From positions 17,762 to 81,761 of the forward strand of contig CAVBBF010000002.1 in the NCBI GenBank assembly GCA_963593735.1: a stretch of DNA of 64,000 bases, written 5' to 3'. Positions 1 to 26,690 of the stretch are shown here, in pieces (position 1 is the stretch's first letter; every line of letters begins with the position of its first letter). The notes beneath the pieces were generated by a model that ran no database searches, was not told the DNA's origin, and worked only from the letters and a program-made list of their open reading frames with translations. Source of the stretch: Phascolarctobacterium succinatutens. GTDB taxonomy: Bacteria > Bacillota > Clostridia > Christensenellales > CAG-917. The translations under genes were made by a program, and so were the position numbers.

Positions 1-1056
1 GTTTTTAAGCCCTGCAAGTACGTTCTTCCTCTCGTTTTGCGTGCAGGAACTCGTAAGCAATGTAAATCTTATCCCCATTGCCTTTGCCACATTCGCAAAC
101 TTTTTTGCGTGTTGAGTTGCAAGTATTTCGGTGGGTGCCATAAGCGCGGCTTGCTTTCCGCCTTTTGCCGCAGTACACATTGCAAAGAACGCAACGGCGG
201 TTTTGCCGCTTCCTACGTCGCCGCTTATTATTCTCGACATATATTTGCTCGAGCACATATCCGACATAATATCTTCAAATGCATGTTCTTGCGAGGATGT
301 CGGAAGAAAAGATAACGTATTTTTATAGTCAACTATTCTAAAATTATCAAAATTATATAATACTTTTCTTGTTTTTTGAGCATTGTTGCGCAATTTTCTG
401 TATATCGACAGCACGATTGCAAGGTCGAGCGACGCAAGCGAATCTATCGCCCTTTCGGCAATATTTATGCTTGTGGGTCTGTGCGCCGCCTCGAAACACA
501 GTGCGAAATCCTTGTTTATTTTGGCAAGATTGCCCTCGTACGTTGTGCCTTTCACACTGTCGAGCGCAGAGAAAACAATATTCTTAAATGCGTTCTGCCC
601 CATCACTCCGCCAAGCGGATAGAGCGTGTATATGCCGTCGAGTTTTGAAATCTTCTCTATTTTTTCAAGCGAGGGATTTACGACGGTGAGCGAGCCTTGA
701 TCGCTTGAAAGCCTCGTGAGCATTCTGTACGACTGCCCGACTGAAAATCCGTCGTGCAAAAACGGCATATTGTAAAACATCGCCTTGAAATAGATTTTGT
801 TGTTTGCAAGGTTGTCGCTGAATATGACAAAAAAGGACTTTGTTTTCGAGCGAGTCACGCTCGATACGCTCTCCACTCTGCCTTCGAACAATGCGAGTTG
901 TCCTGCCTGTGCGTCGAGAACTTTTATAGGTCTTTTGAGGTCGATATACTTGCGTGGCAAAAAAGAAAAGACCTCGAATACTGAATGTATGTCAAGGTCG
1001 TTTAGTTTTTTTATCGTTGCGTCACCGACGCCTTTTACATCGCGCAACGTAAGCAT
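1..1056 (-). CDS. recG: ATP-dependent DNA helicase RecG, N-terminal part (continues past left edge)
   Basis: Not in the ORF track because its stop lies outside the window. My own translation of the minus strand from the ATG at 1056 stays open for all 352 codons: MLTLRDVKGVGDATIKKL...ISGDVGSGKTAVAFFA...APTEILATQH, including a Walker A motif. The ATG lies 1 nt after the yloV stop, matching the Bacillus order yloU-yloV-recG. Confidence 0.8.
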   Translation of the reverse strand, partial: MLTLRDVKGVGDATIKKLNDLDIHSVFEVFSFLPRKYIDLKRPIKVLDAQAGQLALFEGRVESVSSVTRSKTKSFFVIFSDNLANNKIYFKAMFYNMPFLHDGFSVGQSYRMLTRLSSDQGSLTVVNPSLEKIEKISKLDGIYTLYPLGGVMGQNAFKNIVFSALDSVKGTTYEGNLAKINKDFALCFEAAHRPTSINIAERAIDSLASLDLAIVLSIYRKLRNNAQKTRKVLYNFDNFRIVDYKNTLSFLPTSSQEHAFEDIMSDMCSSKYMSRIISGDVGSGKTAVAFFAMCTAAKGGKQAALMAPTEILATQHAKKFANVAKAMGIRFTLLTSSCTQNERKNVLAGLKN

Positions 1057-4399: not shown

Positions 4400-4456
4400 A
4401 ACTTTACCTCTATATTCTTTATTTGGATAATTGAACTTACTATTCCGATATTTCTC

Positions 4457-5017
4457 AACCCAAACGAAGTTTGGATATCATCGTGCAAGGCACGATATCA
4501 TCACAACGTGATATCATCGCCAAAGGCGATATCATTATTATACCTCAACTGCGGCGTAGCCGCAATTTCACCCGCGTAAAGCGCGGATATCACACAAATG
4601 AAGTTTGGATATCAACCGAGCGAAGCGAGGATTTTATCCGCGTAGCGGATATCGTTTGAGCCGCAGGCACACTCGTCATTCTGAGGGAACGCAGTGACCG
4701 TGAGAATCAAGCGAAGCGAACTGCGCCTACGGCTGGATTCCCACGCTGTCGCTCGGAATGACGATTGGGTGGGACACCCACACCCGAACGGAATAATGAC
4801 AAGTGGAATATTTGAATATTCCATAACCCAAACGAAGTTTGGATATCATCGTGCAAGGCACGATATCATCACAACGTGATATCATAGCCGCAGGCGATAT
4901 CATTATTGTACCTCAACTGCGGCGCAGCTGCAATTTCACTGCCTATAAAGGCAATTCCACGCGCGCTTGCGTGCATTTCCCTGCCGAAGGCAATATCACT
5001 GCGCCAACGGCGCAATA
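4457..5017. repeat. Intergenic mosaic of short variable hairpins joined by (G/A)ATATC linkers, including a 115-bp direct repeat
   Basis: Example: GATATCATC-GTGC-aag-GCAC-GATATCATC-AC-aac-GT-GATATCATC-GCC-aaa-GGC-GATATCATT, and near 4990 GGCAATATCAC-TGCGCC-aac-GGCGCA-ATATCAG. The direct repeat is 4457-4571 versus 4825-4939 (about 109/115 identical by my count). Confidence 0.7.
4674..4763. repeat. REP-like long imperfect palindrome
   Basis: CGTCATTCTGAGGGAACGCAGTG ... CACGCTGTCGCTCGGAATGACG are imperfect inverted arms about 22 nt long around a 45-nt centre. The element lies between the two 115-bp direct repeats. Confidence 0.55.
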
Positions 5018-25317: not shown

Positions 25318-25513
25318 ACAAACCTCTTGACTATCGAATATTTTATAAAATTATTATATCATCTTCTTTACGCATTGTAAATAAATAAAAATCTACGTCG
25401 TTTTAGTACGCTTGCAATACTTTAACCGCAATTTCAGCATAGATTTCTTGATTAAAATATGTGACACTTTATGTGACAGAATACAGCGGAAACGGGCGGA
25501 AAATCAAACACAT

Positions 25514-25544
25514 AAAAAAACAAAAACCCCACTAAACAGTAGGG
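25514..25544 (-). terminator. Intrinsic terminator closing the tRNA-Ser/repeat unit
   Basis: On the minus strand, a CCCTACT-GTTT-AGTGGGG hairpin (one mismatch) followed by TTTTTGTTTTTTT. Confidence 0.6.
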
Positions 25545-25561
25545 TTTTTGCACTTTGTTGC

Positions 25562-26352
25562 GGAGAAGATGTAAGTCGTTGCTATGCAACAAACATCTCT
25601 TTGCTCCGCAGGTCACCTGCCAGCGTAGACAATCCTGCAATGCTTCGCATTTTTACTTTTTCTTATGCTCGCAAACTCGTGCAAGCACGGTTGCGGACAG
25701 AAGAAGATGTAAGTCGTTGCCTTGCAACGAACATCTCCTTGCGCCGCAGGCTAAGAAGAGATTCGCCAATCAGCGAAGCGTGTGTGCTTGCACACATAGC
25801 GGAGCGTGCAACGAAGAGTTCGGCAACACAGTTGCCAACGGCATGAGAAATGCCGTTGAATCTCTCTTCTCCTTCTCTGCTTTTTGAAGAAGATGTAAGT
25901 CGTTGCTTTGCAACGAACATCTCTTTGCTCCGCAGGTCTCCTGCCGTCGTAGACAATCCTGCAATGCTACGCATTTTTGCTTTTCTTATGCTCGCAAACT
26001 CGTGCAAGCACGGTTGCGGCCAGAAGAAGATGTAAGTCGTTGCCTTGCAACGAACATCTCCTTGCGCCGCAGGCTAAGAAGAGATTCGCCAATCAGCGAA
26101 GCGTGTGTGCTTGCACACATAGCGGAGCGTGCAACGAAGAGTTCGGCAACACAGTTGCCAACGGCATGAGAAATGCCGTTGAATCTCTCTTCTCCTTCTC
26201 TGCTTTTTGAAGAAGATGTAAGTCGTTGCTTTGCAACGAACATCTCTTTGCTCCGCAGGTCTCCTGCCAGCGTAGACAATCCTGCAATGCTTCGCATTTT
26301 TGCTTTTTCTTATGCTCGCAAACTCGTGCAAGCACGGTTGCGGACAGAAGAA
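25562..26352 (-). repeat. Tandem composite repeat A1-B1-A2-B2-A3 (323-bp period), candidate structured-RNA array
   Basis: A units are about 132 nt (25562-25693, 25886-26016, 26209-26340) and differ at a few positions. The B units 25699-25885 and 26022-26208 read identical over 187 nt. Core hairpins lie at 25562-25612, 25700-25750, 25886-25936, 26023-26073 and 26209-26259. Strand was inferred from G-U pairs. Confidence 0.75.
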
Positions 26353-26382
26353 AAAGCAACCCTACGGGTTTCGCAGGATTGC
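26346..26382 (-). terminator. Hairpin plus U-tract immediately after tRNA-Ser
   Basis: On the minus strand, GCAATCCTGCG-AAACC-CGTAGGGTTGC followed by TTTTTCTTCT. It contains two G-U pairs that would be A-C mismatches on the plus strand. Confidence 0.6.
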
Positions 26383-26389
26383 CTTTCGG

Positions 26390-26482
26390 TGGCGGAGAAG
26401 AAGAGATTCGAACTCTTGAACCGCTTTTGACGGTTACGCGATTTCCAGTCGCGCGCCCTCGACCAAACTAGGCGACTTCTCC
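26390..26482 (-). tRNA. tRNA-Ser (anticodon GGA), class II with long variable arm, CCA encoded
   Basis: Folded by hand from the reverse complement. Acceptor stem GGAGAAG/CTTCTCC; D stem GCC/GGC. Anticodon stem CGCGA/TCGCG with loop CTGGAAA. Variable arm AACCG-TCAAAAG-CGGTT; T arm AAGAG-TTCGAAT-CTCTT. Discriminator G followed by CCA. Confidence 0.9.
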
Positions 26483-26488
26483 GTTTTT

Positions 26489-26538
26489 TGGTGGGAAGTC
26501 GAGGTTTGGTACGCAGTACCATTAAACACGACTTCTCC
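26489..26538 (-). ncRNA. tRNA-like minihelix / pseudo-tRNA fragment in the tRNA-Ser leader
   Basis: Minus strand: GGAGAAGTCGTGTTTAATGGTACTGCGTACCAAACCTCGACTTCCCACCA. The first 10 nt are identical to the tRNA-Ser 5' end. The 5' arm GG(A)GAAGTCG pairs with the 3' arm CGACTTCC, with one bulged A. There is an inner hairpin GGTAC-TGC-GTACC and a 3' ACCA. It does not fold as a cloverleaf. Confidence 0.3.
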
Positions 26539-26575
26539 ATAAGTTATATTTAATTATTTTAGTTGCTATACAAGT

Positions 26576-26643
26576 GGGTGGCAGTTGGAAGCGAATGGAA
26601 AACAAAACCATTTCCTCCAACTGTTCACGGGGTACTGCTACCC
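26576..26643. other. Long imperfect hairpin in the tRNA-Ser leader
   Basis: The outer arms GGGTGGCAG (26576-26584) and CTGCTACCC (26635-26643) enclose the hairpin TTGGAAGCGAATGG-AAAACAAAA-CCATTTCCTCCAA. The strand of function is ambiguous because the wobble evidence is mixed. Confidence 0.4.
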
Positions 26644-26661
26644 TCAAAACCCAACGTGACG

Positions 26662-26690
26662 ATTATATATCAACAAAGCGATTTTGACAA
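26662..26690 (-). promoter_or_regulatory. Near-consensus sigma-A promoter of the tRNA-Ser unit
   Basis: On the minus strand, TTGTCA (26690-26685), a 17-nt spacer, then TATAAT (26667-26662). Confidence 0.6.

Follow-up and report, generated by a model that had tools for sequence, protein, structure and literature searches.

Phages and genomic islands classically dock at the 3′ ends of tRNA genes, and the traces that such elements leave there (scars) are usually treated as junk. Two putative scars of this kind lie in a 64-kb stretch of bacterial chromosome (contig CAVBBF010000002.1, positions 17,762 to 81,761; the whole stretch is called the window here), downstream of a tRNA-Ser(GGA) gene; they are copies of a structured non-coding unit, designated B, with ends that resemble the 3′ end of this tRNA. 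An original prediction, made from the letters of the window, had offered two readings of B, a tRNA mimic and a relic of tRNA-targeted recombination. Comparison with related genomes leads us to favor, with a probability of about 0.55, the reading in which B belongs, as a non-coding cassette, to an accretion array on an attachment (att) site formed by the 3′ end of tRNA-Ser(GGA), with the stretch from the T loop to CCA (the core) as the repeated element.

Accretion and decay at tRNA att sites are established (PMC5704250; 10.1101/2020.12.28.424599). Where cis-mobilizable elements (CIMEs) accrete in tandem with integrative and conjugative or integrative and mobilizable elements (ICEs and IMEs; PMC5704250), the CIMEs are, like B, bounded by attL and attR repeats of the target 3′ end, lack integrase and transfer genes, form tandem arrays and commonly decay. 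B differs from CIMEs in being only 125-165 nt long and free of genes, and in carrying an inverted core copy and conserved hairpins; among ICEs, IMEs and phages, no parent that has an arm of the B type was found. As expected of a CIME-like element, B is flanked by att-type direct repeats (exact, near-exact or truncated, depending on the species), and occupied and empty sites are found among close relatives; an integrase-bearing parent with the same arms was not found, the P and P′ arms of the phage that uses the core being unrelated to B except in terminator type. The tycheposons of Prochlorococcus (10.1101/2020.12.28.424599) and the Dehalococcoides ssrA islands (PMC3146451) share with B repeated integration at one tRNA or transfer-messenger RNA (tmRNA) gene, new elements that push older ones outward, remnants and partial tRNA copies downstream, and variation at the strain level. 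These islands are, however, kilobases long with cargo genes and integrases, while B units are mostly non-coding and shorter than 200 nt, and at the B locus the 5′ flank of the tRNA is repetitive as well.

Phages that recombine in the T loop resemble B in that the identity block of attP and attB runs from the T loop to CCA and in that the element supplies the tRNA 3′ end plus a terminator (as in the L139/L131 family described below, with a 19-nt core); the block of B begins 2 nt earlier (at C56), and B has no TGTCACA arm repeats and no neighboring integrase. A class of integrases that cross over in the tRNA T loop was reportedly defined by Williams in 2002. The attP(+) site of CTXphi consists of two dif-like sites in opposite orientation, approx. 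90 bp apart, within a 150-nt forked hairpin (PMC3089051). This site and the attC sites of integrons share with B oppositely oriented target-like copies approx. 90-120 nt apart, a structure that is kept while the sequence varies, and tandem arrays; their recombinase is supplied in trans, and B cassettes likewise carry no integrase. Imperfect inverted repeats, conserved ends and a variable structured center, as in attC and attP(+), are all present in B. Differences from these sites include the long (21-nt) block of identity between B and its target, the lack of an attached replicating element, and a single-stranded DNA (ssDNA) fold that is a prediction; no intI-like gene was found beside the tRNA in the window. 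Of the known structures, the CTXphi attP(+) hairpin comes closest to B. A tRNA minihelix resembles the best-preserved B units in that their closing helix is composed of acceptor and T stem followed by GCCA; in B, however, the T loop is replaced by a multi-hairpin insert of 95-120 nt, and most members lack a full acceptor stem or CCA. Miniature size, a conserved hairpin module and an inverted core copy are what sets B apart from known att-site accretion; at this locus the scars are gene-less modules of 125-165 nt that keep one architecture (inverted core, four hairpins, direct core) across species, have arms that follow the tRNA, and form arrays that vary among near-identical strains of abundant, poorly studied gut bacteria.

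B-like cassettes directly 3′ of tRNA-Ser(GGA)

Both window copies of B sit in a tandem repeat with the unit R-A-R-B (Table 1), in which R is a 50-nt hairpin and A an 88-nt structured segment. Read along the minus strand, B consists of an inverted core copy (GGAGAAG-AGAGATTC), hairpins hp1 and hp2, the motif GAACTCTT (the reverse complement of the T-stem 5′ strand plus the start of the T loop), hairpins hp3 and hp4, and a truncated core (CGAATCTCTTCTT). The strings on which the original prediction had based its multi-branch model (i.e., GGAGAAGAGAGATTC, AACGGCAT-TTCTC-ATGCCGTT, GGCAAC-TGT-GTTGCC, TGTGTG-CAAG-CACACA, and GGCGAATCTCTTCTT) were all found on this strand, and the predicted second copy is present and identical to the first, because both lie within the repeat of period 323. 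The 13-nt exact match between the 3′ arm and the tRNA was also recovered: CGAATCTCTTCTT occurs on the minus strand at 25753-25765, 26076-26088 and, in the tRNA itself, at 26398-26410, three times in 64 kb against approx. 0.16 expected by chance at ≤1 mismatch, a number that none of 100 shuffles reached. With spacings of 323 and 322 nt between the three, the tRNA 3′ end falls into register with the tandem repeat. As had been claimed, the 5′ arm (GGAGAAGAGAGATTC) is the reverse complement of tRNA GAATCTCTTCTTCTCC minus one A.

The multi-branch fold predicted for B was reproduced (minus strand, -50.2 kcal/mol, z = -3.9), and since the plus strand folds nearly as well (-48.2 kcal/mol, z = -3.2), the fold alone gives no strand. 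As to the further claim that the closing helix imitates a stacked acceptor/T minihelix, the arms do match the tRNA end, but the acceptor portion is incomplete in the window, where the 3′ arm ends in ...CTTCTTAGCC rather than ...CTTCTTCTCCGCCA, the 5′ arm is short of one A, and CTCC and CCA are absent. ARAGORN and Rfam recognized only the genuine tRNA on either strand, with no match to B even at E <= 10, and no Rfam 15 family matched B at its gathering threshold; the sole sub-threshold Rfam match in the array (Clostridiales-1, 19.9 bits vs. a threshold of 48) falls on A, not on B. A protein-coding repeat was ruled out, the period of 323 not being a multiple of 3 and the open reading frames (ORFs) there being of a mechanical kind.

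Related loci were collected by scanning for the first 28 nt of this tRNA, with one genome per species, which yielded 92 loci (L numbers); B-like units were identified in them by BLAST, by direct reading, and with a covariance model (R1) built from ten B-like sequences. Fifteen of the 92 species-representative loci contained B-like units, always directly 3′ of tRNA-Ser(GGA), in cassettes of approx. 125-165 nt. The canonical order is tRNA core, intrinsic terminator, inverted core copy, hp1, hp2, GAACTCTT(G), hp3, hp4, and direct core copy, the latter measuring 20-21 nt, from C56 to CCA, in most intact cassettes. This direct repeat of the 21-nt core (CGAATCTCTTCTTCTCCGCCA) is exact in L036, L075, L119, L103, L049 and L058, near-exact in L053 (one deletion), L055 (two mismatches) and L102 (one indel), and truncated or degenerate in the window (13 nt) and L092. 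The inverted core copy is perfect in L092 and L055 (GGAGAAGAAGAGATTC). In addition, GAACTCTTG is the reverse complement of tRNA CAAGAGTTC; the left half of B is therefore tRNA nt 48-72 in inverted copy, with hp1 and hp2 dividing it within the T loop. Between the variable hairpins the unpaired motifs GAACTCTT, ACGCTCCGCT and CGCTATTACGG are conserved, and the cassette terminators differ among species. Strong matches to model R1 were found only directly 3′ of tRNA-Ser(GGA) in approx. 750 kb of related loci plus the 64-kb window.

Insertion is precise. At the occupied sites of L036 and L075 the tRNA is followed by terminator-B-core and then by CCGAAAGGCAATCC..., while at the empty sites (the window, L030, L091, L035 and L008) that trailer follows the tRNA directly; the occupied site of L092 shows the same precise insertion between tRNA and trailer when set against L113, L115 and L007. 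The minihelix is intact in sequence in L055, L092 combines a perfect arm with a truncated core, and most homologues pair only AAGAAGAGATT with AATCTCTTCTT.

That the arms should track the neighboring tRNA in homologous loci had been set beforehand as a test, and the outcome was positive for both arms in L044/L038. There, the T stem of tRNA-Ser(GGA) is AAGGG/CCCTT, against AAGAG/CTCTT elsewhere, and the inverted arm (GAGAAGAAGGGATTCGAA) and the direct arm (GGCGAATCCCTTCTTCTCCGC) of the cassette both carry the matching change. Compensatory changes in three hairpins (hp1, hp2 and hp3) lend further support to the multi-branch fold: in the ten-sequence alignment, 92% of the cells in hp1-hp3 form standard pairs and 13 of 24 pairs carry changes on both sides, values that none of 500 shuffles reached, and slid controls were 35-54% paired. 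The closing helix is invariant within one tRNA type because one of its sides is fixed by the tRNA, and it changes in step in the L044 type. Folding energy gave no consistent strand preference, subfamily 2 (see below) folding 8-12 kcal/mol better in antisense, and the few non-Watson-Crick hairpin pairs were, in a hand count, mostly G-T on the tRNA-sense strand; assignment of a strand by folding energy or G-U counts was abandoned, as the answers were inconsistent.

Arrays also vary between strains. A scan of metagenomes for GAACTCTT-N45-75-core returned eight contigs from one species, CAG:475-like, the flanks of which share 98-99.6% identity with one another and with L007 and L075. The contents differ in the interval from the tRNA to a 330-nt 'C' cassette that they have in common: L121, L124 and L125 have one terminator-B-core unit, L123 has two and L126 at least three; L075 and L127 have B followed by A-R; and L007 has no B and carries instead a 1.25-kb cassette with a 212-aa ORF ending in ...CTCCGCCA, which matched no Pfam, PHROG or PADLOC family. 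B cassettes thus alternate with other core-bounded cassettes (A-R, the 330-nt 'C' cassette and the 1.25-kb ORF cassette), and distal core copies decay (the window, L092 and L055). The 'C' and ORF cassettes occur in the same array (L121-L128; L007 2164-2500). Among strains, the terminator loop reads either AAAC or GTTT (CCCTACTAAACAGTAGGG vs. CCCTACTGTTTAGTAGGG; L075 at approx. 2380 vs. L121 at approx. 3660), and such a flipped loop is typical of recombination or template switching within a palindrome. A PD-(D/E)XK-like ORF lies next to the array in L055 and has weak similarity to the candidate defense protein PDC-S26.

These comparisons show the T-loop-to-CCA stretch to be a recombination core in this clade and the cassettes to be core-bounded, gene-less units that accrete at that core and are reshuffled around it. 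Of the two readings originally offered, the recombination relic is the one supported, by the direct repeats, the precise insertions, the terminator that the cassette supplies, the strain variation, and a phage that uses the same core (see below). We propose that two processes would have made and reshuffled the array: site-specific recombination at the core, for which no candidate recombinase was found, and crossing-over, unequal or homologous, among the repeats of core, R and terminator; each incoming unit would supply a fresh tRNA 3′ end and terminator and would push the old copy downstream to decay. We infer that a recombinase acts, or once acted, at the core, and that the cassette has its own site in the inverted core copy paired with the direct one. 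These two copies lie approx. 95-120 nt apart and, if single-stranded, would fold into a duplex that reproduces the att half-site of the tRNA gene; more speculatively, and by analogy with attP1/attP2 of CTXphi or R''/R' of an integron attC, this folded pair would have been the cassette's recombination site. The window copy of B is shown by the same comparisons to be a degenerate member of the family, with its core cut to 13 nt and its terminator lost, and fused to R. In the window, the 323-bp R-A-R-B unit has recently been duplicated, and a phage later integrated into the last R copy and was then deleted, leaving its P′ arm.

A phage family that uses the same core

A prophage lies beside the tRNA in a sister species (L130), with genes for an integrase (Phage_int_SAM_3 plus Phage_integrase), a CI-like repressor, and Sipho_Gp157. 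Homologous integrases are encoded on contigs of approx. 38-41 kb beside a large ART-PolyVal gene, which is the free-phage arrangement, and the integrated form was seen in L136. In the free phage, attP is composed of an AT-rich P arm with TGTCACA repeats, AATCTCTTCTTCTCCGCCA, a terminator (AAAACCCTACTGTTTAGTAGGGTTTTT), CCGCCCGTTTCCGCTGT, TGTCACATATAGTGTCACATA and the integrase gene. With its 19-nt core, attP was recovered from L131 and L139, attL from L130 and L136, and attR from L150; the last 19 nt of the core CGAATCTCTTCTTCTCCGCCA are identical in the phage attP. Searched against IMG/VR, the 19-nt core returned one true attR (L150), the rest being tRNAs or chance matches in coding sequences, and the 21-nt core returned only a tRNA-Ser of a jumbo phage.

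The last R copy of the window is joined to a segment (25432-25567) that aligns with the P′ arm of this phage family; a phage therefore once integrated into the pseudo-core of R, to be deleted later. This segment holds a terminator (AAAAACCCTACTGTTTAGTGGGGTTTTT, 25520-25551) followed by CCGCCCGTTTCCGCTGT, TGTCACATA repeats after the latter, and TGTCACATAAAGTGTCACATA; no integrase is left in it. On this alignment, R served as a secondary attB from which the prophage was later lost. B had also been considered as the P arm of the core-using phage, and this candidate was rejected once the free-phage attP had been recovered: the P arm is unrelated to B, and the phage identity block starts 2 nt later (at A58, against C56 in B), so that B is not simply a remnant of that phage's attP.

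The phage family (approx. 38-41 kb; integrase, CI-like repressor, Sipho_Gp157, and an ART-PolyVal protein of 2,500-2,800 aa) is represented by free forms (L131, L139 and L140), integrated forms (L136-L138), part of L130 (1-9443) and the attR in L150. Within the GenBank phage collection it is matched only by Clostridium phage phi3626, over a short CI-like stretch, and we regard the family as previously undescribed temperate siphophages. A related integrase lineage, P0126, is 68% identical and has the same arm motifs, TGTCACA and CCGCCCGTTTCCGCTG (L142 2760-3080; L144 2700-2900), and integrates at another 3′ end that is tRNA- or tmRNA-like (...TTCGAATCCCTTATG...). This points to att specificity being exchanged as a module; on B, the lineage was uninformative. 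Two small integrase elements (L041 and L070) were also set aside, as they are unrelated to B and have a longer repeat that begins in the anticodon arm.

Weighing the explanations

Several observations weigh against an accretion array. No integrase or recombinase gene adjoins any B cassette in the window or the related loci (in L119 and L055, B is followed downstream by housekeeping genes or by an unrelated ORF of nuclease-like type, and by no recombinase), no full-length element with a B-type arm was found, and B is, from the alignments, not simply what remains of the attP of the core-using phage. B falls into two subfamilies, of which subfamily 1 occurs in the closer and subfamily 2 in the more distant relatives. 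Subfamilies that roughly follow host relatedness agree with long vertical inheritance under structural constraint (i.e., some function) at least as readily as with repeated insertion, and hairpins that compensatory change has preserved are usually the mark of an RNA. Finally, the tandem units on the 5′ side of the tRNA, which copy its 5′ end (described below), are not explained by integration at the 3′ end, and an extra process or constraint must act on both flanks. One rival explanation is a functional tRNA-like RNA, in which B, R and the 5′ units would be co-transcribed with the tRNA, their acceptor/T-like helices being recognized by RNase P and the tRNA 3′-end machinery as 'tRNA punctuation' handles, so that defined structured RNAs would be released, or in which B would serve to decoy enzymes or toxins that bind the tRNA-Ser acceptor end. 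We consider this unlikely, although several observations agree with it: in the best-preserved members (L092 and L055) the closing helix is a 12-bp stack of acceptor and T stem followed by GCCA; hp1-hp3 show compensatory changes and both arms follow the tRNA variant; the 5′ units lie inside the transcribed leader, have acceptor-like stems and almost always T at position -1; the window array, for which an RNA would be most plausible, lacks a strong internal terminator and ends at a good one; and the few wobble pairs in the hand count favor the tRNA-sense strand. In most species, however, a good terminator separates the tRNA from B and another follows B, only 10-25 nt lie upstream of the arm, which is too little for a promoter, and most members have no full acceptor stem, pairing AAGAAGAGATT with AATCTCTTCTT only. 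The window copy, with neither CTCC nor CCA, the antisense preference of subfamily 2 within an overall lack of consistent strand preference, and the failure of B to be recognized as a tRNA or as any Rfam family also argue against an RNA, and compensatory change in a DNA palindrome can also come from template-switch correction and is therefore not proof of RNA function.

A recombination substrate folded from ssDNA, as in CTXphi attP(+) or attC, with a tyrosine recombinase acting in trans to insert the cassette at the tRNA (in the role of attI or dif), is an analogy that we consider distinctly improbable, even though the integrated order it predicts (core, element body, inverted copy, spacer, core) is the order seen. 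Its geometry matches that of CTXphi (copies 95-120 nt apart in a 125-165-nt module), structure is kept while sequence varies as in attC, and the cassettes lack their own integrase and form tandem, strain-variable arrays; on the other hand, no cognate recombinase, ssDNA replicon or full-length element was found, a cassette of 160 nt lacks any means to replicate or to be transferred, identity blocks of 21 nt typify att recombination between double-stranded sites and not attC x attI or attP(+) x dif, and the C and D cassettes of the same arrays have no inverted copy. Templated mutagenesis in quasi-palindromes is well established, and an inert pseudo-tRNA, in which the 3′ part of the tRNA was duplicated and inverted and then decayed while quasi-palindrome correction kept its hairpins, would fit the correspondence of the inverted arm plus GAACTCTT(G) to reverse-complemented tRNA nt 48-72 (with hp1 and hp2 as an interruption within the T loop), the decay of distal core copies in the window, L092 and L055, and the frequent tandem duplications on both tRNA flanks. 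Such a relic is very unlikely given that the same module order recurs, with conserved unpaired motifs, across two deeply diverged subfamilies and a different tRNA variant, and that insertions are precise, with exact 21-nt repeats and a terminator for each that differs among species. The inverted termini of 15-16 nt, small size and non-coding nature of B would also suit a plain miniature inverted-repeat transposable element (MITE) or a repetitive extragenic palindromic (REP) repeat whose termini resemble the tRNA by chance, a reading that we find scarcely credible. B copies away from tRNA genes, which the original prediction had named as the mark of a plain MITE, were seen neither in the window, where no B or R copies occur outside the array, nor in the approx. 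750 kb (approx. 100 loci) of related sequence; two B patterns had no matches in IMG/VR, and the array had none in the phage GenBank collection or the PLSDB plasmids. The arms, furthermore, change with the tRNA, and the flanking repeat is the 21-nt tRNA end, of att type, and not a target-site duplication of 2-10 bp. A pattern for the R hairpin did return 18 matches in IMG/VR, all in one unrelated phage family with unrelated flanks, and these were dismissed as a chance match in a conserved region. For end-copy repeats around other tRNAs, the data include just six other tRNAs, a small sample.

Beyond the accretion array itself, we can offer only tentatively, as a model that is probably wrong, the idea that B, R and the 5′ hairpins form one previously undescribed family of tRNA-Ser-end mimics that work single-stranded, either as integron- or CTX-like cassettes that dock at the tRNA 3′ end and recombine through folded inverted core copies or as 'tRNA punctuation', in which minihelix mimics would guide RNase P and 3′-end processing and so release structured non-coding RNAs from a tRNA operon. 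Should the modules be active, whether by folding into recombination sites or by being processed as RNAs, this would represent a new use of a tRNA gene as a platform. If they are inactive, the locus still illustrates how a 'tRNA mimic' can be imitated by att-site accretion, decay and tandem duplication, explains assembly breaks (in this species, two contigs terminate within the array or close to it), and provides a strain marker.

The tRNA locus and its flanks

Features of the locus are listed in Table 1. The window is bacterial chromosome with a G+C content of approx. 46% and housekeeping genes that include those for a UvrD/PcrA helicase, Rho, and a CNNM/CorC transporter, and tRNA-Ser(GGA) is its sole tRNA. 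Uncultured gut Clostridia labelled Christensenellales, Borkfalkiaceae or 'Firmicutes bacterium CAG:238' are the source of the proteins and loci with matches to the window; the clade is thus one of Christensenellales-like gut Clostridia, with 'Firmicutes bacterium CAG:238' as the nearest named genome. A metagenome-assembled genome of the same species (GCA_963609315.1, L001) has the same locus. Synteny with the CNNM gene was not kept beyond the species and led only to L007, L008 and L130.

Table 1. Positions in the window of the tRNA-Ser(GGA) gene, the array and the flanking features
Feature	Position	Strand	Evidence	Remarks
B, distal copy	25753-25872	minus	sequence, fold, covariance model R1 match 25745-25880, 111.8 bits	
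B, proximal copy	26076-26195	minus	model R1 match 26068-26203, 111.8 bits	identical to distal copy
Tandem repeat	25564-26352	minus		unit R-A-R-B, period 323, 2.4 copies, 96% matches
R hairpin, copy 1	26209-26258	minus		other copies 26023-26072, 25886-25935, 25700-25749, 25559-25611
Phage P′ arm scar	25432-25567	minus	alignment with attP of L139 and L131 and attL of L130	joined to last R copy (ATCTTCTCCGCAA)
tRNA-Ser(GGA)	26390-26482	minus	ARAGORN; Rfam RF00005, 54.2 bits	CCA encoded; array anchor
Core CGAATCTCTTCTTCTCCGCCA	26390-26410	minus	repeated at cassette 3′ ends in related species	tRNA nt 56-76, 21 nt
tRNA trailer	26259-26389	minus		weak terminator-like hairpin GCAATCC...GGGTTGC and U-tract, then A body (A1)
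5′ leader unit	26483-26538	minus		starts GGAGAAGTCG = tRNA nt 1-10; hairpin with acceptor-like stem
Promoter-like site (sigma-70-like)	26662-26690	minus		precedes leader RNA
Leader RNA, approx. 90 nt	26565-26655	minus		precedes tRNA

The host trailer is kept in approx. 10 related species, and the A-R segment is the host's usual trailer, which follows the core at the attR of the integrated phage (L150). R occurs in five copies in the window, against 0 expected. Its 3′ strand (ACATCTTCTTC...) derives from the tRNA 3′ end and extends to CTTCTTCTCCGCC(A) in L102, L049 and L075, and its 5′ strand (GCGGAGCAAAGAGATGT) is an imperfect inverted copy of the 3′ strand; judged by these matches, R is built like B, from a strand of the tRNA 3′ end and an inverted copy. 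The two complete 300-nt repeat copies are 98% identical, and L001 has a single R-B-R-A where the window has 2.4 units, a difference that may be due to assembly collapse. The 0.85-kb array is bounded by the tRNA and by the strong terminator at 25520-25551. Since no strong terminator interrupts it, transcription probably runs on from the tRNA through the array, which would then be a passive structured trailer.

On the 5′ side of the tRNA, related species have one to five tandem copies of the 5′ leader unit, each of 43-78 nt and nearly always with T at position -1; such units occur in approx. 25 of the 92 species loci (including L001 3504-3665, L007 640-819, L056, L112 and L030). These units look like palindromized 5′ tRNA fragments and, given their existence, mimicry of the tRNA ends may be under selection on both sides of the gene. 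The leader RNA that precedes the tRNA is conserved, with a 4-bp P1, a hairpin P2 in which the sequence varies while the pairing is kept, and a long conserved P3 (CAGTTGGAGGAAATGG...CCATTGGCTTCCAACTG); it was also found in L007 (540-630), L008 (approx. 190-270, minus strand) and approx. 35 other loci, and had no Rfam match.

Two short-read contigs of the same species stop in or next to this locus, L003 within the first copy of A, and L002 among the repeated 5′ leader units before the tRNA is reached, and these repeats probably break or collapse assemblies. Elsewhere in the window, a 131-nt direct repeat (4441-4571 and 4809-4939; 91% identity, 368 nt apart) may represent a protein domain or an intergenic repeat, and 26-nt repeats related to it start at 4455, 4589 and 4823.

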